A DNA stretch of 64,000 nt from Candidatus Hermodarchaeota archaeon (GTDB taxonomy: Archaea; Asgardarchaeota; Lokiarchaeia; Sigyniarchaeales; SOKP01). Made by a program: the position numbers and the translations under genes. Location: NCBI GenBank assembly GCA_048885925.1, contig JBHLLG010000001.1:259105-323104 (forward strand), in the 5' to 3' direction. Below the pieces are notes generated by a model. It saw nothing but the letters and a program-made list of their open reading frames with translations, searched no databases and was not told the origin of the DNA. Below are positions 9,915 to 61,596 of this stretch, piece by piece (positions within the stretch are counted from its first letter, which is position 1; every line of letters begins with the position of its first letter).

Positions 9915-11075
9915 TTAAAATGGAAAATTATAATTATTTAATCCAAGTTCATTTTGTATGATTTTAATATCATTTTGCAAACTTTTATTTATTGGAATTC
10001 CATTCCTTTTCTTTTCTAACTCATTATAATATTCTTTTTCCCCTGCAGTGTATATTCTTTCTTTTCCTGGTGCTTTCTTAGAACATCTCAATTCTCGCAT
10101 AATATTTCCTGTTATTCTTTTAAATTTTGATACTGGAATGAAATTCTGAACGTTAATAGCTAAAAAGAAATGTCCTACTTTTAATCTTTTTTGACCATTT
10201 TCAATAATTCCTGCTGTATCTTTTAGATATACTCCATCCTGCAACGCTGAAGATAATATCTCAGCAAAGGTAGCATAACCATAACCTTTGTGACCTGAAG
10301 TTTCCTCTCCTTTACCTCCTAATGGTAATAACGCCGCAGAACGATTGATTAATTTATTTAATACTATATTAGGATCAGTTTTTGAATTCCCATTGTTAGA
10401 AATAATTACCCCTTCTGGTAGAGATTTGTGAATACGATTATACACCTCAACCTTACCTCGTTGTATAATTGAAGTAGCAGCATCAATAAGAAACGGAAAA
10501 TCCTCGTCGGTAGGAGCTCCATAGGTTAAAGGATTAGTACCTAACATAGGTTCAATGCCAAAAGTAGGGGGTACAGATGGTCTTGTGTTAGTTGTTACAA
10601 AGCCAATCATTCCTTCCTTTATTGCCATAAGTGAATAATACCCAGCAATTCCAAAGTGAGAACTATTACGAACTGCAACAGCTCCGATACCATATTTTTT
10701 TGCTTTTTGAATTGCTAATTTCATTGCATTATAAGCGATAACATGTCCCATACCACATTTACCATCAATAACTGCTGTTGATTTATTATCAGAAATAATT
10801 TCCAAATCAGTTTTAGGATTATAAATTCCCTCTCTTATTCGATCGTAATACATTTTAAGTCTCTGAATTCCATGAGAATCAATACCCCTTAAATCTGATG
10901 ATATAAGAACATCCGCTATAATTTCGGCATCCTTTTTAGGAACTTTAAGATTAACAAAAACATTTTTTATAAAATCCTTAAGAAGATAAGCATCTAAATA
11001 AAATATTTCATCTGAGGAAGAATTTAATGTACTTTTCGTGTCCTTGTTTACTTTTTCTTTTAATATCTTTTCCAT
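9915..11075 (-). CDS. Ldh_2 family oxidoreductase (malate/L-lactate/sulfolactate dehydrogenase type 2), copy 1
   Basis: SDLRGIDSHG, NSSHFG, GTNP, HKGYG. Confidence 0.9.
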   Translation of the reverse strand: MEKILKEKVNKDTKSTLNSSSDEIFYLDAYLLKDFIKNVFVNLKVPKKDAEIIADVLISSDLRGIDSHGIQRLKMYYDRIREGIYNPKTDLEIISDNKSTAVIDGKCGMGHVIAYNAMKLAIQKAKKYGIGAVAVRNSSHFGIAGYYSLMAIKEGMIGFVTTNTRPSVPPTFGIEPMLGTNPLTYGAPTDEDFPFLIDAATSIIQRGKVEVYNRIHKSLPEGVIISNNGNSKTDPNIVLNKLINRSAALLPLGGKGEETSGHKGYGYATFAEILSSALQDGVYLKDTAGIIENGQKRLKVGHFFLAINVQNFIPVSKFKRITGNIMRELRCSKKAPGKERIYTAGEKEYYNELEKKRNGIPINKSLQNDIKIIQNELGLNNYNFPF

Positions 11076-11335: not shown

Positions 11336-11455
11336 TGGCTCCTGTCAATCCCCTGGATTTTTGTCTTTTGGTTGTGTAATTAATTACACATAGGAATAAC
11401 CTACTCTGCCTTTTGAAAATTTTTGCCTTATATTAAGGCTTTTTGGCAGGAGCCA
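11336..11455 (+). ncRNA. Putative structured ncRNA, copy 1 (unknown family)
   Basis: Closing stem TGGCTCCTGTCAA/TTGGCAGGAGCCA, internal hairpins, and a 22-nt core identical to the element at 47540-47672. Confidence 0.55.
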
Positions 11456-11516
11456 CCTTTTATCAATTTCTGAACAGAGTTATTTACTTTTACTTTCCTT
11501 TATAAAAGGAGTTAGT

Positions 11517-12362
11517 TCAAAGTAATAAGAATATCTCAATCAAAAACAAATCTAAATTTAAATCTTTTAATAATTTCATATTATTATAGATGTATGTGTA
11601 AATATTTTCGTCGCTGAAATATTTAAAGCATAAACTTTTACCTTTTACTTCTTTTATAATTTTGACTATATTAGAGAGAATTAACTTCAAATTTTTTATA
11701 ACAAAATCCCTGTCACTCTTAATTAAGTTTATATCTATAATATTAAACCAATTTTCTTTACTGAAAGTTATATTCTCGAGTTCAGGATTTTTAATAAAAT
11801 CTTGTTTAGTTTTAAATTCAATACAGAACTCCTCTATTTTATTAAGAATTATATTTTTCGATTTGGTATACATTTTATTCTCAATAACATTTCTTAACAT
11901 TATTAGAATTTTTTGGAAGATACCTAAAGTATCAAAAAAATCTGCTACTTGTTCTAAATTTTCTACTTCTACCCATTGATTATAATAATCTTCAAGTTCA
12001 TTAAGAAATGGTAAAAAAACATTAATATCTCCGTCCCAACTTTTACCTTTTTTTATCCAGACAGGTTCATACTGTTTTATAAAGGAATTTTTAATTACAT
12101 TAAGTCTGCTTAATAAAAGCTCAGTCTTTATATGTTTTGTATCAGCTGCCACAAAAAGTAATTTAAATTTATCTTCTAGTATATAAACCCATCTTAAACC
12201 CCCCATCTCTATAGAGTCCAACGATTCTTTAAATTCCACCATTGAAAAATGGTGAAATGCCGTTAAAAAACCAGAAACTATATCCTCATCTGCATCTGTT
12301 TTCAAAAAGGATTTATATAATAATTTAATCCCTGATTCAGCATCCATTATCCAGATGAGCAA
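11517..12362 (-). CDS. Longin-like domain protein (Asgard eukaryotic-signature type)
   Basis: N-terminal IMDAESGIKLLY...IVSGFLTAF...SIEMGG pattern typical of Asgard longin-like proteins. Confidence 0.65.
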   Translation of the reverse strand: MLIWIMDAESGIKLLYKSFLKTDADEDIVSGFLTAFHHFSMVEFKESLDSIEMGGLRWVYILEDKFKLLFVAADTKHIKTELLLSRLNVIKNSFIKQYEPVWIKKGKSWDGDINVFLPFLNELEDYYNQWVEVENLEQVADFFDTLGIFQKILIMLRNVIENKMYTKSKNIILNKIEEFCIEFKTKQDFIKNPELENITFSKENWFNIIDINLIKSDRDFVIKNLKLILSNIVKIIKEVKGKSLCFKYFSDENIYTYIYNNMKLLKDLNLDLFLIEIFLLL

Positions 12363-44226: not shown

Positions 44227-44502
44227 TTATTCTTTCTTACTTTTATCTTTTAATTTTTTCAGGTATAATTTCATAAAATATCGTTCACTTTCACAAAAAT
44301 CGAATTTTTGTTTTTTAGAAAGATTTGAACAATTTAATAATATTGCATGAATTCTTTGAAGTGTTATAAGATTTTCATCACAGATATTCTCAATTTCTGT
44401 ATTATTTTTTTTTAGATTGGTTTTATCTGAATTTTGTAAAACTCTTGTGTTAGAGATTACTTCTTTGATCTTAATCCTTTCTTTTTCGATTTTTGTATCC
44501 AT
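44227..44502 (-). CDS. Hypothetical protein
   Basis: Start overlaps the helicase stop codon. Confidence 0.55.
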   Translation of the reverse strand: MDTKIEKERIKIKEVISNTRVLQNSDKTNLKKNNTEIENICDENLITLQRIHAILLNCSNLSKKQKFDFCESERYFMKLYLKKLKDKSKKE

Positions 44503-47045
44503 TATTTCTTGTGATTCTTGATTATTTTTTTACAAAGATTTATTCCTAATCCCGTTTTTTGATTTAAGACAAAAGGGCTTTCTTTTTTTACTTGAGAGGC
44601 AGTATGATATCCTGCATTATACAAAAGTCGCGCCCTTACTCGGGCAACATCATTTAATCGCATCACTAAATCAAATAACTCCTCGTGGATTCCATAATGC
44701 AATCGAATTTTTAGCGTTTCTGCCATTTCTGCAACAGAGACTAACTTATCATGCAGATCAGTACCATGAGTGCTTAAATTACTAGCGATAATTCCAATAA
44801 AGGTAATTATTCTTTCTAGATTATCTCTTACAGAAAATAAATCTCCCGCCATAATGTTGTATTTATCTAAGATTTCATCAATTGGTTCTTCATCTGCCCA
44901 TTCTAAAATCGGTTGTAGCATTTTCGTATCCTTTACTCTGAATTCTGCTCTTAAAATGTCAAAAGCCACTTTAATCAGTTCTTGGAAGCTATTAATCTCA
45001 CTATATTCCAATTTGTAGCGGATTATCACTCCTGATACAGGGTATAAATACAATCGTATAATGAGTTTTCCAAATTGAGAGCATTTGATGGTTCTATCTT
45101 CATTTTTTATAATTAATCCTTTCTCAAACAAGTAGGATAAGATATACTGATTCTTTATTGATTTAGGAATAATGGAATCTACATATTTCTGAAAGTTTGC
45201 ATCTGGTAATTGGACAAGGTAGATTAAGAAGCTAGAAACATGATCACAAAACTCAAAACTAAACTCATCATTAGCAAAGTTATCGGAAATACCATTTTGA
45301 ACCCCGCAAGTACATTGAATTCCCGTGTCGATGTCAAATTGACAAAAATATACCCCATACGAGGTCTTAATATACCCAGAGATATTGGAATCGTTGAATT
45401 TAGTTAATTTAATCTGATAATTGTTTTCTTTTAATGACTGGATTTTAGCAGGATTTGCATGTAATTTTAAGATATTTATAGGAGTAATTTCTTTTATCAT
45501 TAAGAGCTGTTCAATAGGTATTTGTTGTTCTTTCATTTTATGTTTAATTCCATACCAAAAGTATGTTTTTTCAAAAAATTGTTTTAATAACTTTAATGTG
45601 ATATTTTTTTCCTCATAAATTCTTAAAAGAACTTGTTCTTTGAGTGTATTAATTTTGTTTAACCCTGATGTTAAATCATTATATTTTGGTATAAGGATTT
45701 TTGTAATTGGTTGTGTTTGAAAGAAATGATCTTCTACCCACATTTTTTCCTCAATGTCGTGTACTAAAATGATACCATACCCTACTGAATCAAGACCAGG
45801 ACGTCCTGCTCTTCCTAATATTTGAAATACTTCATTCGCAGAAAAAGATTTAAAATAGGAAAACCCATCTCCGTTTTCATGAAATCCTGAAAAATTCTTA
45901 ATATTATGCCCAGAAGTAACATACTTTTTAAAATCTTTTAAAATAACAACCCGAGCTGGAGTATTAATGCCCGCTGATAATGTGGTAGTACAGCAAATAA
46001 CTTTAATAATTCGTTTTCGGAAATAATCTTCTACTAGTTTTCTTTCTTTTGGTAAAAGTCCAGCATGATGAAAAGCCACTCCCGATTTGATGACTTTTTG
46101 AAGATCTTTATGCCCTCCTCTGATTGAACTCAATTGCTTTTCTAAATTTTTACATATTTTCAGCTCATTCTCACTTACTACCTTTTTAACGAGGGATTTA
46201 AGATTCTCTGCTGATTGTTGGGTCTTTTTTCGTTTATTGAGAAAAATAAGTAATTGTCCATCTTTTCCTAATATTGATTTTACAATTCTTTTGATGGTAG
46301 AATCCTTGTTTTGAGTAATTTCGATCTTATAATGAAGAGGCACAGGTCGAGTATCAGATTGAATCAGTGTAGTGTCATTCCCCAATGAAGACAACCACGA
46401 ATTAAAAAATTCAGGATTAGCAATAGTGGCTGAAAGCCCAAGGATTTGAGGATTATGTAAGAATTCATTTAATCTTACAATCAAGGATTCTAATCGTGGA
46501 CCTCTATCTGATTCCCCTATGATATGGATCTCATCAATAATAATAGTTGAAATATCATAAATCCACTCCTTATCATAGAAATTTCTCAGGATCGAATCCA
46601 TTTTCTCATAAGTAGTTATAATCATATCTGCTTTTTCTAGTTTTGAATCATCCACATCATAATCTCCTATGGAAAGCTCCACATGAACATTAAAGCGCTC
46701 ATAATTTTTTTTAAAATGAAAATATTTTTCTGTGGCTAATGCTTTGTAAGGGACTAAATATACTGATTTTCCGAAATTCTGAAATACATTATTTATTGCA
46801 CACACTTCACCGATTAATGTTTTACCACTTCCAGAAGGTGCACATACTAAAAATGATTTCCGAAAAAATAATCCTTTTTTGATGGTCTCTTTTTGAATCT
46901 CCCGTAATTGGAAGATTTTACTTTCAAATAGTACTCGTAAAATCCGTTCATCCTGAATAAATTTAAAAATTTCTTTATCAATATCATCCTTGACTTTTTC
47001 TTTTTCCACTTTATCGGTAAAGTCGGTTAGTGTTATTAAAAGCAC
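44502..47045 (-). CDS. hel308: Hel308/Ski2-like DExH helicase with SWIM-like Zn-finger insertion
   Basis: APSGSGKT, DEIH, RGPRLE, LSAT, HHAGL, TLSAGIN, GRAGRP; C-terminal ratchet and HhH. Confidence 0.88.
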   Translation of the reverse strand: MLLITLTDFTDKVEKEKVKDDIDKEIFKFIQDERILRVLFESKIFQLREIQKETIKKGLFFRKSFLVCAPSGSGKTLIGEVCAINNVFQNFGKSVYLVPYKALATEKYFHFKKNYERFNVHVELSIGDYDVDDSKLEKADMIITTYEKMDSILRNFYDKEWIYDISTIIIDEIHIIGESDRGPRLESLIVRLNEFLHNPQILGLSATIANPEFFNSWLSSLGNDTTLIQSDTRPVPLHYKIEITQNKDSTIKRIVKSILGKDGQLLIFLNKRKKTQQSAENLKSLVKKVVSENELKICKNLEKQLSSIRGGHKDLQKVIKSGVAFHHAGLLPKERKLVEDYFRKRIIKVICCTTTLSAGINTPARVVILKDFKKYVTSGHNIKNFSGFHENGDGFSYFKSFSANEVFQILGRAGRPGLDSVGYGIILVHDIEEKMWVEDHFFQTQPITKILIPKYNDLTSGLNKINTLKEQVLLRIYEEKNITLKLLKQFFEKTYFWYGIKHKMKEQQIPIEQLLMIKEITPINILKLHANPAKIQSLKENNYQIKLTKFNDSNISGYIKTSYGVYFCQFDIDTGIQCTCGVQNGISDNFANDEFSFEFCDHVSSFLIYLVQLPDANFQKYVDSIIPKSIKNQYILSYLFEKGLIIKNEDRTIKCSQFGKLIIRLYLYPVSGVIIRYKLEYSEINSFQELIKVAFDILRAEFRVKDTKMLQPILEWADEEPIDEILDKYNIMAGDLFSVRDNLERIITFIGIIASNLSTHGTDLHDKLVSVAEMAETLKIRLHYGIHEELFDLVMRLNDVARVRARLLYNAGYHTASQVKKESPFVLNQKTGLGINLCKKIIKNHKK

Positions 47046-47048
47046 CTC

Positions 47049-47303
47049 TTAATAGGGATTTGTCCACTTTTTCATACATTGACTAAATGTTTCTGAATCT
47101 CGCGAAATTTCTATGCTTTTGATAACGCTTAAATTTCTAATTTGTAAATTTGAACTAATATAGCAGATTAACGCATGCAAAGGGGTACCATGAATATGAA
47201 TGTGAGGAAAATATATTGTTGGTTGTAACGTATTTAATGTCCCAATTTCTATTCCTAATGAAATATTTTTCTTACAAAAGGGGCATACGACTTTTTTTTT
47301 CAC
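47049..47303 (-). CDS. Small Cys/His Zn-binding protein
   Basis: CPFC...HIHIHG..H. Confidence 0.65.
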   Translation of the reverse strand: MKKKVVCPFCKKNISLGIEIGTLNTLQPTIYFPHIHIHGTPLHALICYISSNLQIRNLSVIKSIEISRDSETFSQCMKKWTNPY

Positions 47304-47539
47304 GTTTTTTTTTACTTCATTGGTATTTTTTATTTTTCCGAATGCAACGACGATAACTTATCACATCAAATTTAATTATAGTTACTTAATAAAACCATGA
47401 AATTTAAAGAAAAAAGCGAAAGAATGATCTATCTTATAAAAAGGAGGTTAAAGACAAAGACAAAATTGAAAGATAGAATCCTTGATAAAAAAGAAATTAA
47501 AATGGATATTACAATAAAATTTTTTATTTTTAGAAAAAG

Positions 47540-47672
47540 TGTCTAGCTCCCGATACTACCAGACGCAAGAACGCGTCTATAAAACAAAATAGGGGGAGGA
47601 GGGCGAAATTAGAGTGTAAGAAATTACACTACCAAAAGACAAAAATCCAGGGTGTAATTCGGGAGCTAAACA
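47540..47672 (-). ncRNA. Putative structured ncRNA, copy 2
   Basis: Closing stem TGTTTAGCTCCCGA/TCGGGAGCTAGACA on the minus strand, same 22-nt core and hairpin order as copy 1; TTTAAATA upstream at 47734-47741. Confidence 0.55.
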
Positions 47673-47809: not shown

Positions 47810-49621
47810 ATGATATATATGACTGTCTTAGAGGATCAGCTTCCTAGGAAAAAAGAGGATACTGAGATTTATGAAGAACAGTTGGCTTCAGATTCTCTTA
47901 CGATTTCTTTTAAAAAAGGAGATTTAACCGTTATTAAAGGCATAGGTCCTAATGTTGCAGAGAAACTGAAAGCACAAGGATATATTACTGTAGAAGATAT
48001 TGCAAATGCAAATGTACGCCAAATTTCATTGATTAAAGGTATAGGACTTTCGACTGCAGAAAAATTTATTGAAAATGCAAAAGCATATTTACAAATTCAT
48101 AATAAAGACTTATCAACTTTTTCTATACCTCAAATATCTGACACTAGTTCAAATGAATATTCAGTAGAGGAGGTAAAGAAGGATGAGAGCGTTCCACTTG
48201 AGATAATTGATGAAACACCATGTAAGGTTGAGATAAAACCATGGTTTGATCCAAAATACAAGATTTCACGATTAGGAAAAAGTTATGATGTTAAGAAAGA
48301 AAGAGTTCTAGGAGATAATATAGAAGAAATAGATGAAAATTTGGATGAAAATCGTGATATACCAAAAGATTATGAAGATGAAGAATCATTACATAAAGGT
48401 TTTATTGAAGAACCGAGTTTTTTACCAAGAAACGAGTCTTCAAATTCTACTCAAATAGAAATGATAGATATTCAAATTTCAAGAGATCTTGAACGTTTAG
48501 GGTTTTACCTTCTTAAAAAGACACCAGAATTACGTCAATTATTTCTAGGAATAGATATGTTGGCTATTAAGCTTGTTCGTGCAAAAGAATTTTTAGACTT
48601 CATCTACATTATTCCTTTAAAAATCAGCACACTAAAAGGAGTTTTAGTTGTATCTGAGACTACCATTGAATATCGCCCTACTACCGAGGAAAAAGATACT
48701 CTTTTTAAAATGAGGGGAGTGCCAGAATCAATTTTAAAGGGACTTCACAATTCAGGACAAAAGATTTTTCAAGACATTTTGAATATTGGGACGCTTTACA
48801 AGCTTATTAAACAATATCTACAAATTGATATCTCCCTTAAAAAGACAGTAATCCGTGAAACTCTGTTTTTTCATTCTGGTCCGTTACAATATCGATTTTT
48901 ATTGGAACCAATCCTGATCTCCCAAGGAACTGTAGGATTCACAGAGAAATTAATTCCGTTTGCGTATCACAAACACACTAATATCCATATTATTGAAGTA
49001 TCTCAGTTATCGAATTTCTTAGATTATATTGATCAAAAATACTTGCTTATAGAAAATTATACACAACAGAAGACTTCGATTGAGCTCCATGAAGAATCGA
49101 TGTACAAATTCTCAAAAGATATAAGAAATTTTTCGGCTCCTTTTATGCTGTTTGGATTTGTATTTTTATCATTATTGATATTTCAGGCGTATTCAGTTTT
49201 ATCTATATTCATTAGTTTAGGATATGGAGTTTCAGCACTGTATGGTATTGGATTTGGCTATCTGTATTTAAAGTATCATCAGCAAAAAGTGGCTATTAAG
49301 AATGAGCTGTCCACTCCTTACTATCAGAGAAAGTATGAATTCAAAAAGCCTGATTTGGACTTAATCGCAGAAGAATTTAGCCCAAAACTTATGGAACAAT
49401 TCATTTATGAATGTGTCAATAAAGAAATAGCTTCTAATATCATTTCTAAAATAGAACGAGAGAATGCTGAAGCTTATTTCTCAAGCAAAGTAGCCCAAAA
49501 GACAATAGAAGAAGATTCGCTATTTGAGGCTGAAACCCCAACTCCTCTTGTAAAGGAGAAAAGAAATTCTGAGTTTACTGAGCAATTATCAGATAAATTT
49601 AGTTCGTTTCTGGAGGATTAA
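47810..49621 (+). CDS. Membrane-anchored helix-hairpin-helix DNA-binding protein
   Basis: IKGIGPNVAEKL...IKGIGLSTAEKF double HhH, acidic linker, 2 TM near the C-terminus. Confidence 0.75.
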   Translation: MIYMTVLEDQLPRKKEDTEIYEEQLASDSLTISFKKGDLTVIKGIGPNVAEKLKAQGYITVEDIANANVRQISLIKGIGLSTAEKFIENAKAYLQIHNKDLSTFSIPQISDTSSNEYSVEEVKKDESVPLEIIDETPCKVEIKPWFDPKYKISRLGKSYDVKKERVLGDNIEEIDENLDENRDIPKDYEDEESLHKGFIEEPSFLPRNESSNSTQIEMIDIQISRDLERLGFYLLKKTPELRQLFLGIDMLAIKLVRAKEFLDFIYIIPLKISTLKGVLVVSETTIEYRPTTEEKDTLFKMRGVPESILKGLHNSGQKIFQDILNIGTLYKLIKQYLQIDISLKKTVIRETLFFHSGPLQYRFLLEPILISQGTVGFTEKLIPFAYHKHTNIHIIEVSQLSNFLDYIDQKYLLIENYTQQKTSIELHEESMYKFSKDIRNFSAPFMLFGFVFLSLLIFQAYSVLSIFISLGYGVSALYGIGFGYLYLKYHQQKVAIKNELSTPYYQRKYEFKKPDLDLIAEEFSPKLMEQFIYECVNKEIASNIISKIERENAEAYFSSKVAQKTIEEDSLFEAETPTPLVKEKRNSEFTEQLSDKFSSFLED

Positions 49622-60489: not shown

Positions 60490-61596
60490 TTATGAAAAAT
60501 CAAACTTGTATTTGTCTAATCCCATCTCTTTCTGCATTTTTAGAATATCTTCTTGTATACTTTTGTTTAAAGGAATACCTTTCTCTTTTCTTTCAAGTTC
60601 AGCAAAATATTCTTTTTCTCCAGCGGTATATATTCGATCCTCATATGGTATTTTCCTTGAGTCTCTAAGATCTCTCATGACATTACCGGCTGTTCTTTTG
60701 AATGATTGTAATCCAGAAAAATTTTCAAGGTTAATCGCCAAGAAAAAGTGACCAACTTTAAGCCTTTTTTGACCATCCTCAACGATTCCAAGAGTGTCTT
60801 TTAAAAAAATACCCTCTTGTAAAGCAGCAGAGAGAAGTTCAACGACAGTTGCATAGCCATATCCTTTATATCCCGCTGTTTCTTCTCCCTTACCTCCTAA
60901 TGGCAATAGTGATGCTTTTCTTTCTAACATCTTTTTTAAAACTTTGTTAGGATTTGTTAAAATTTCACCATTTTCATCAATCACAGTATTTTCTGGAAGT
61001 AGTTTATTAATTCGAGCATTTACTTCAACTTTTCCTCTCTGTATGATTGAGGTAGCACAATCAAGAAGAAAAGGAAATTCCTCATCAGTAGGAGCTCCTA
61101 TTGTTAGTGGATTCGTTCCCAACATTGGTTCAGATCCAAAAGTTGGAGGAATAGATGGTCTCGCATTAGTAGTTACTATACCAATCATTCCTTCCTTTAT
61201 TGCCATAAGTGAATAATACCCAGCTATCCCAAAATGTGTAGAATTTCTAACTGCTACTGCTCCTAATCCATATTGTTTTGCTTTCTCAATTGCCATTTTC
61301 ATAGCCTTATAAGCGATTACATGACCCATTCCACAATTTCCATCTAAAAGGGCAGTCGTAAGGGTTTCTTTTATAACATCAATTTTAGTTATTGACTCGT
61401 AAATTCCTTCCTTAATTCGATCGTAATACATTTTACATCTCTGAATACCGTGTGACTCAATCCCTCTTAAATCGGAAGTAATTAGAACATTAGATATAAT
61501 AGTCGCATCTTCTTTAGGCACTCCAAGACCTTGAAAAACATCTCTCATAAAATTTTCAAGCTGATTAACATCAATATATACAATATCTTCCGACAT
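60490..61596 (-). CDS. Ldh_2 family oxidoreductase, copy 2
   Basis: SDLRGIESHG, NSTHFG, GTNP, YKGYG; close paralog of 9915-11075. Confidence 0.9.
   Translation of the reverse strand: MSEDIVYIDVNQLENFMRDVFQGLGVPKEDATIISNVLITSDLRGIESHGIQRCKMYYDRIKEGIYESITKIDVIKETLTTALLDGNCGMGHVIAYKAMKMAIEKAKQYGLGAVAVRNSTHFGIAGYYSLMAIKEGMIGIVTTNARPSIPPTFGSEPMLGTNPLTIGAPTDEEFPFLLDCATSIIQRGKVEVNARINKLLPENTVIDENGEILTNPNKVLKKMLERKASLLPLGGKGEETAGYKGYGYATVVELLSAALQEGIFLKDTLGIVEDGQKRLKVGHFFLAINLENFSGLQSFKRTAGNVMRDLRDSRKIPYEDRIYTAGEKEYFAELERKEKGIPLNKSIQEDILKMQKEMGLDKYKFDFS

Follow-up and report, generated by a model that had tools for sequence, protein, structure and literature searches.

Two copies of the element

The stretch of DNA analysed here as a whole, called the window below, comprises 64,000 nucleotides (64 kb) of contig JBHLLG010000001.1 from a Candidatus Hermodarchaeota archaeon. 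It harbors two paralogous genes for a structured RNA of ~120–130 nt: copy 1 at 11336-11455 on the plus strand and copy 2 at 47541-47671 on the minus strand. The RNA family to which they belong had not been described before, and its occurrence is limited to a single family of Promethearchaeia (Lokiarchaeal Asgard archaea). It has a defined structure and strand, gene-like boundaries and vertical inheritance, and we are highly confident that it is a real family of structured RNA genes. The two copies are marked by a 22-nt core, CCCTGGATTTTTGTCTTTTGGT, of which the window has just these two occurrences, 11351-11372 (+) and 47631-47652 (-). The identity of the core in the inverted copy, claimed in the initial annotation of this DNA, is thus exact, and two core matches were reached in none of 100 dinucleotide-preserving shuffles of the window.

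The predicted fold of copy 1 (-41 kcal/mol, z -4.85; none of 200 shuffled sequences is as stable) contains everything that had been annotated for this 120-nt element, including its 13-bp closing stem with one G-U pair and its hairpins. The closing stem P1 (TGGCTCCTGTCAA/TTGGCAGGAGCCA), which covaries family-wide, is formed by a 5' arm at 11336-11348 and a 3' arm at 11443-11455. Between the arms lie the invariant U-rich core (11351-11372), containing an A-U5-G heptad and then UCUUUUGGU, the hairpin P2 (TGTGTAAT/ATTACACA, 11373-11390), a linker J2/3 of non-canonical type (11391-11424) and the hairpin P3 (GCCTTA/TAAGGC, 11425-11439). Both hairpins are supported by the fold as well as by covariation. 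The TAGG/CCTA hairpin inside the linker is restricted to the copy-1 type and is no feature of the family. P1 is followed by a terminator-like CCTTTT tail at 11456-11461. The two covariance models described below, R1 and R2, match copy 1 with 103.4 bits (E 6.7e-21) and 98.1 bits, respectively.

Copy 2 has the same layout with different stem sequences (fold z -6.8). Its extended P1 is predicted to be formed by the arms at 47654-47671 (5') and 47541-47560 (3'), which enclose the core identical to that of copy 1 (47631-47652), P2 (47613-47630), a linker J2/3 of the canonical C-rich type (…UUUCGCCCUCCUCCCCCUAUUUU…, 47579-47612) and P3 (47561-47578); a terminator-like T5 tract lies just past P1 at 47534-47538. 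The covariance model match extends over 47544-47668, with 90 bits (E 1.1e-17) for R1 and 103.2 bits for R2. An alignment of the two copies demonstrates that they have only the core and the fold in common.

Structure and novelty of the family

Model R1 is based on 14 sequences and a structure written by hand, and model R2 on 99 matches. From 5' to 3' the members consist of the P1 5' arm, the core, P2, a linker of ~30 nt, P3, the P1 3' arm and a CC(Y)UUU tail. The RNA is thus modelled as a three-helix junction: P1 is formed by the two ends of the RNA, and two single-stranded joints set the hairpins P2 and P3 apart. The first joint is a 20-nt U-rich core, CUGGAUUUUUGUCUUUUGGU, common to all paralogs and including the A-U5-G heptad and the UCUUUUGG half; the second is the linker. 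The P1 5' arm most commonly reads GACUCCUGCC, but paralogs with quite different P1 sequences were found individually, and P2 often reads UAGYGUA…UACRCU. The core has 19 columns without any variation across 25 diverse sequences, against a mean column identity of 51%. The exact 20-mer is present in about five sixths of the matches listed in the core pattern search, most of the differences affecting the two bases that precede it.

The helices are supported by compensatory changes. When 92 distinct sequences were aligned to the model, standard pairs occupied 94.5% of the cells, as compared with 26–48% for partners slid by 1–3 columns. Changes on both sides were found in 23 of the 23 modelled pairs, and the observed values were reached in none of 500 shuffles; the alignment used for this count was fitted to the model, which favours it. 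In a plain MAFFT alignment compensatory changes are present in 13 of 19 predicted pairs. A further reservation is that most of the sequences were collected via the exact core, so that its conservation is partly a matter of ascertainment. G-U or U-G combinations occupy 90 cells and A-C or C-A combinations 26, which demonstrates selection on the given RNA strand. The proposals of a structured small-RNA family and of stems that differ between the two copies in a compensatory way are therefore both borne out.

No Rfam 15 family was matched at the gathering threshold anywhere in the window. At E values up to 10, four loci gave only four chance-level matches (E 1.5–5), of which one overlaps the element, on its opposite strand; no ribozyme family was among them. 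The comparison with Rfam proposed together with the initial annotation thus yields no family at either level of stringency. No tRNA or tmRNA gene was found in the window. A 17-nt part of the core is absent from the literature searched, in which supplements were not covered, and the 13-nt DNA string of the core was found there only in five papers titled on unrelated organisms. With the same coverage, the search gave no description of such an Asgard small RNA. Two known classes of genes were rejected. The C box motif, RUGAUGA, of C/D box small RNAs is present in 0 of 92 members. A small protein-coding gene is not compatible with the lack of an ATG before the core in 36 of 92 members and with the frames of the core relative to the ATG in the rest (23/23/9).

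Invariant joining strands in a three-helix junction with freely covarying helices are typical of small ribozymes. The architecture of the family, with its invariant junction strand and multiple copies, would fit an RNA that cleaves itself or is catalytic in another way. Against it stand the absence of any Rfam ribozyme family among the permissive matches, the variation of the second junction strand between paralogs and the lack of any repeat or retroelement association of the copies. A catalytic function is therefore regarded as highly improbable.

Distribution

The assembly to which the window belongs (3.9 Mb, 181 contigs, ~30% G+C) contains only the two copies, according to both the core pattern and the covariance model. 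Of the 153 genomes of the order, 127 contain the core with at most 3 mismatches, which gave several hundred matches as compared with 8 for a reversed control pattern. The matches concentrate in one family (f1, 125 of 133 genomes); the three other families gave 1 of 14 (f3), 0 of 1 (f2) and 0 of 4 (f4), i.e. 1 of 19 genomes outside f1. Model R1 matches 118 of 125 f1 genomes, with 1–18 copies in each, and 1 of 24 genomes from other families of the class. The search of Asgard genomes with a covariance model, proposed earlier, has thus recovered the family in most f1 genomes. The sole match outside f1 in the order (L003 / L076, G010:C1000, family f3) is on a contig of 1.8 kb and is similar to copies from an f1 genus, and it may therefore be a binning error. 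Model R2, run on a sample of the phylum, matches all 25 f1 genomes and, among 125 genomes from 26 other families, a single one; this match is borderline (29 bits, E 6e-4).

A scan for the exact 20-mer in one genome per prokaryotic species gave at least 108 loci, and 79 of the 80 listed match R1. The titles of the listed loci are nearly all Promethearchaeota or Promethearchaeia, with few other labels. Promethearchaeota, which we take to be the current name of the Lokiarchaeal Asgard archaea, is placed in the kingdom Promethearchaeati, and the assignment of the DNA to an Asgard archaeon from sequence alone was therefore correct. An exception among the listed loci is a metagenome-assembled genome labelled Clostridia, in which the 20-mer has no fold. 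This match looks like chance: about 1 chance match is expected in 596 billion bases by our own arithmetic. The exact 20-mer core was also observed in three IMG/VR contigs filed as viral (L240-L242), with weak or partial model matches (42, 23 and 23 bits); one of these contigs is 225 kb long and may be cellular.

Gene boundaries and genomic context

The 3' boundary of the element is marked by T-rich sequence. TTT follows P1 within 10 nt in 67 of 90 loci, as compared with 29 and 35 of 90 in two control windows, and CC(C/T)TT in 60 of 90, as compared with 2 and 1 of 90. Termination at T-tracts is usual in archaea, and the tail is consistent with it. The upstream regions are A/T-rich, and 23 of 92 have a TAGGG/A box (AAATAGGGAA-like) at -16 to -28 from P1, as compared with 2 of 92 for a control window. 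The box could be a promoter element or a coincidence, and the upstream regions are at most compatible with a promoter of the RNA's own. The AAATAGGGAA-like box is also complementary to the CCCUAUUU part of the canonical linker.

Copy 1 is located between a malate/lactate dehydrogenase-family gene (9915-11075, minus) and a gene of unknown function coding for 281 amino acids (11517-12362, minus). Copy 2 lies between a Ski2-like helicase gene (44502-47045, minus) and a gene for a helix-hairpin-helix protein (47810-49621, plus). Between copy 2 and the helicase gene there is an open reading frame (ORF) of ~85 amino acids with a CPFC motif (47045-47310, minus), below the 90-amino-acid minimum of the ORF list; its protein sequence is conserved in a related species (65% over 90 amino acids by tblastx). 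Copy 2 is thus upstream of a co-directional small ORF and helicase gene, and some other copies also precede co-directional genes, as would be expected for a cis-acting element of the adjacent gene (a leader, a riboswitch, a structure of the 3' untranslated region or a terminator). This explanation is nevertheless extremely unlikely. Copy 1 has no co-directional downstream gene, and among 46 loci, by our reading, ~13 downstream ORFs are co-directional and 10 convergent, the rest having none of at least 90 amino acids in the locus. The neighbouring gene families are unrelated, and the element has its own T-tract. A cis-regulatory leader or riboswitch was rejected for the mixed orientations and unrelated neighbours.

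Both copies are present in a relative of the same genus (L193, G048:C64:34000-53000) in the gene order of the window, as judged by tblastx. The copy-1 type is located there between the dehydrogenase and the 281-amino-acid gene, and the copy-2 type between the small ORF with the helicase start and the helix-hairpin-helix gene. The shared genes are collinear, and the RNA genes are separated by 6.5 kb in the relative and by 36 kb here, so that ~30 kb in the interval 11456-47540 was either gained here or lost in the relative. The window has two paralogous Ldh_2-family dehydrogenase genes (9915-11075 and 60490-61596, both minus). The single dehydrogenase gene beside the copy-1 type of the relative is more similar to the distant paralog (60490-61596; 82%) than to the adjacent one (9915-11075; 68%). 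Among copy-1 orthologs of three species 108 of 120 RNA positions are invariant, including 30 of 34 in the linker, as compared with 69 of 150 upstream, and P3 changes in a compensatory way.

The only flanking family that recurs among the 46 loci consists of small membrane ORFs, found in several genera in divergent orientation to the canonical copy. They lie ~180–600 nt upstream on the opposite strand (L005, L007, L014, L016, L025, L028, L029, L030 and L173) and code for hydrophobic products of ~125–140 amino acids without a Pfam match; 9 of 13 compared ORFs are homologous. This recurrence indicates stable synteny. The neighbours also include a few genes of RNA metabolism (L009, L013, L175, L186 and the window at 44502-47045), namely those for a DEAD-box helicase, a Clp1-like kinase, a ThrRS editing domain, a tRNA-intron endonuclease and the Ski2-like helicase; these ~5 cases in ~46 loci may be due to chance.

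The initial annotation had named a match to a family of miniature inverted-repeat transposable elements (MITEs) among the findings that would overturn it. The family resembles MITEs in being short and multi-copy, in its paired ends and in the location of several copies at contig ends. Some copies of one genome are near-identical including their flanks (L027, L042 and L176 of G041), and those of the window are inverted. A MITE-like non-autonomous mobile element, or a DNA-level repeat such as a binding site of a recombinase or regulator, is however scarcely credible. Both window copies are syntenic in another species, orthologs are conserved in place, and paralogs share only the core and the fold, their stems having changed in a compensatory way. 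The excess of G-U over A-C combinations reflects selection on one RNA strand. No transposase, integrase or reverse transcriptase, nor any Cas protein, was found among the 63 ORFs flanking the 46 loci, and no transposase or integrase among the 16 ORFs of the window.

The invariant core

The A-U5-G heptad is invariant and lies between P1 on its 5' side and P2 on its 3' side, both of which are supported by covariation. The strand thus runs directly into a hairpin, as in the Sm-class small nuclear RNAs (snRNAs) of eukaryotes, including U7, where the heptad is also located in a strand between helices. The heptad is followed directly by GUCU. According to passages in PMC12360213, the consensus of the U7-type Sm site is AAUUUGUCUAG and that of the spliceosomal one AAUUUUUGG; the GUCU and neighbouring bases of the core fit the former better than the latter. 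Passages in PMC12817955 state that Sm-like archaeal proteins (SmAPs) bind U-rich RNA and that three SmAP genes are typical of TACK and Asgard archaea. The genome studied here has three clear LSM-domain genes (76, 59 and 54 bits) and a weak fourth match (24 bits). A reading of the core as an Sm or SmAP site is thus plausible on sequence grounds, and an Sm-like protein is our most economical guess for the partner of the scaffold. That this partner is indeed a SmAP seems possible, with the balance leaning against it.

The likeness to snRNAs has its limits. In the present family a long closing stem joins the two ends of the RNA, the heptad is preceded by G, 20 nt are invariant instead of ~9, and binding of an Sm ring is putative. 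The link to eukaryotic snRNAs implied by the initial annotation is weakened by the nearly complete absence of the RNA from the 26 other families sampled. Since the RNA is restricted to one archaeal family, an ancestral tie to snRNAs and thus shared descent with them are unlikely.

The variable linker

The linker contains 6.8% G (19% in the whole RNA) and 76% pyrimidines. It varies between paralogs and is conserved between orthologs; the copies within one genome range from near-identical duplicates to paralogs with only the core and the fold in common. The canonical linker type, to which copy 2 belongs, is C-rich (…GAUUUCGCCCUCCUCCCCCUAUUUU…), and CCCUCC is found after the core in 49 of 89 members. 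Many other linker types exist, that of copy 1 among them.

The Shine-Dalgarno motifs of the host, located before start codons, are of the GGAGG/GGTGA type. No 16S rRNA gene was found in the assembly itself, and the 16S rRNA was therefore checked in relatives, where its 3' end reads GGAUCACCUCCU. The canonical linker resembles this anti-Shine-Dalgarno end, and a 5-mer of it is present in 53 of 84 distinct linkers as compared with 25.3 ± 3.8 after shuffling. A mimic of the 16S 3' trailer by the linker tail was rejected: the trailer differs in genus g2 and the linker tail does not. Two 16S fragments from f1-labelled genomes (L235 of G104 and L236 of G147) differ strongly from the remaining f1 16S sequences in a conserved region and may stem from contaminating organisms in these bins.

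The likeness of the canonical linker to the end of 16S rRNA also enters into a ribosome-related explanation, in which the linker would mimic this end and the core would pair with a conserved stretch of 16S rRNA, the RNA acting as a folding chaperone or modulator. With GAGGGACGAAAGCCAGGG, in the 5' half of the 16S rRNA of a relative (L208, G020:C2), the core can form an 18-bp duplex with 5 G-U pairs and an energy of -24.7 kcal/mol. Shuffled cores give -19.5 ± 2.0 kcal/mol and reached the observed value in none of 100 cases, and an invariant core would suit an invariant target. The score is nonetheless only ~2.5 standard deviations from the shuffles, with two rRNAs tested, and 23S rRNA gave nothing (22 of 100 shuffles were as good). 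A U/G-rich core pairs promiscuously, and the target is part of a folded rRNA. All 7 f3 genomes compared, which lack the RNA, moreover have an identical target stretch, as do 10 of 12 f1 loci, so that the core and 16S rRNA show no phyletic link. The core pairing is a weak lead, and the ribosome-related explanation as a whole is very improbable.

Proposed mechanism

We propose that both loci would be independent genes for a non-coding RNA of ~120–130 nt composed of a constant scaffold and a variable recognition module. A common protein, in all likelihood one of the three SmAPs if this scheme holds, would dock on the core, and the linker would pair in trans with purine-rich targets. The CCUCC-rich linker of the commonest subfamily, as in copy 2, could mask ribosome-binding sites. 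We thus infer transcription, a protein partner and pairing in trans. The logic of a scaffold with a guide or seed follows from the invariance of one module across paralogs and the paralog-specific yet ortholog-conserved sequence of the other. We regard this logic as evenly poised between right and wrong, and the whole mechanism, including SmAP docking and linker pairing in trans, as tentative and slightly on the doubtful side.

A number of observations weigh against this mechanism, beginning with the core. An equal set of LSM genes is present in f3 genomes without the RNA, so that no dedicated SmAP partner stands out; a dedicated Sm paralog was rejected for the same gene set in f1 and f3. An Sm ring needs ~7 bases, and the 20 invariant bases exceed that. 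The initial annotation had described an Sm-site-like core as in snRNAs: the invariant heptad between helices with its 3' hairpin agrees with this description, but thermodynamic folding does not show the core as clearly single-stranded, its unpaired probability being 0.51 as compared with 0.44 for the remaining RNA. In three loci, L190 (G035:C343), L202 (G034:C75) and L203 (G034:C208), an insertion of 26–28 nt is located inside the U5 tract. These variants keep CCUGGAU before the insert and (Y)GGAAUUUUGUCUUUUGGU after it, and an A-A-U4-G stretch is likewise retained on the far side of the insert. The CYGGA element is repeated after the insert, and no consistent hairpin or fold was found among the inserts. 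As to the linker, the anti-Shine-Dalgarno signal comes from the canonical subfamily only, since the 5-mer is present in 9 of 40 non-canonical linkers with 7.2 expected; copy 1 lacks the motif. RNAduplex was run with both linkers on 2683 start regions and matched intragenic controls. No enrichment was found below -15 kcal/mol either for copy 2 (170 start regions, 157 controls) or for copy 1 (95 start regions, 136 controls). Runs of 11–13 nt with G-U allowed are no more frequent than for reversed linkers, and exact antisense 11-mers of the linkers gave only short AT-rich matches.

These null results of the start-region and G-U run scans would be expected if the RNA had no base-paired targets at all. 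The core and the linker could then both be protein platforms (e.g. for a SmAP and a binder of C/U-rich single strands) of a sequestering or structural ribonucleoprotein (RNP) that titrates or assembles proteins. The invariance of the 20-nt core, the G-poor unstructured linker and the 1–18 copies per genome are in line with such a role. It is difficult to reconcile with linkers that are very different between paralogs and yet conserved in each set of orthologs. This pattern fits sequence-specific recognition of nucleic acid better than the binding of one common protein. We consider the sequestering or structural role unlikely. A bolder extension of the scaffold-and-guide mechanism would make the family a programmable guide-RNA system of an Asgard lineage. 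The invariant U7-like core would carry a ring of the Sm type or another dedicated protein, and the paralog-specific linker would guide the particle to complementary purine-rich RNA for cleavage, 3'-end processing or translational silencing. Such a system would be an archaeal analogue of the U7 snRNP in function, with an origin separate from that of eukaryotic snRNAs. This extension is a quite improbable one.

Comparison with known small RNAs

By analogy, the RNA would work most like a protein-chaperoned trans-acting small RNA, and its closest formal look-alike appears to be U7 snRNA. Like U7, it is a short RNA ending at a T-tract and has, separate from the Sm-like heptad, a pyrimidine-rich single strand as a potential antisense element. 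It does not belong to the U7 family, given its near absence from the rest of the phylum sampled and the putative nature of Sm binding. The order of the parts is also different: in passages of PMC12360213 the antisense region of U7 is located 5' of the Sm site, and the linker of the present family lies 3' of the core.

The small RNAs associated with SmAPs in Sulfolobus, Haloferax and other archaea share with the family a U-rich tract as the likely protein site and an intergenic location, independent transcription being predicted for the family. The host also has the three SmAP genes described as typical in passages of PMC12817955. The family, in contrast, has no sequence or model similarity to any archaeal small RNA in Rfam. 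Archaeal SmAP-associated RNAs are not known to constitute a single multi-copy family in which the core is invariant and the three-helix fold is fixed.

In bacteria, Hfq-dependent small RNAs of the RsaE/RoxS type mask Shine-Dalgarno sites by C-rich seeds. They resemble the family in having a U-rich protein-binding element, an unpaired C/U-rich seed and a terminal helix with a U tail, and the CCUCC repeats of the canonical linker are complementary to the GGAGG motifs of the host. They belong to another domain of life and are not homologous, and the anti-Shine-Dalgarno content is found in one subfamily of the present RNA.

The Ro60-associated Y RNAs are also of ~100–130 nt; their two ends are paired in a long stem, they carry a U tail at the 3' end, and a genome contains several paralogs. 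The stem of Y RNA carries a conserved protein-binding bulge, however, whereas the closing stem of the family covaries freely. A Y RNA was rejected: Ro60/TROVE (PF05731) has 0 matches in the genome of the window (95% complete), in which positive controls were matched, and no Rfam Y RNA model is matched.

Biological significance

To our knowledge, few structured non-coding RNAs have been described in Asgard archaea apart from the universal ones, and the comparative support for the present family exceeds that of any other that we found. With its restriction to one Lokiarchaeal family, the RNA is a lineage marker. Several hundred variants of its sequence occur in nature, its three-helix fold is clear, and its invariant 20-nt element must make some specific contact. 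Should the partner be a SmAP ring, the core would represent a well-defined Sm site of the snRNA style in an archaeon and would give a handle on the roles of Sm proteins before the spliceosome. Each genome of the family would possess a small set of programmable regulators if the linker is a guide. Such RNPs can arise late, and this cautions against reading the RNA as a relic of eukaryogenesis.

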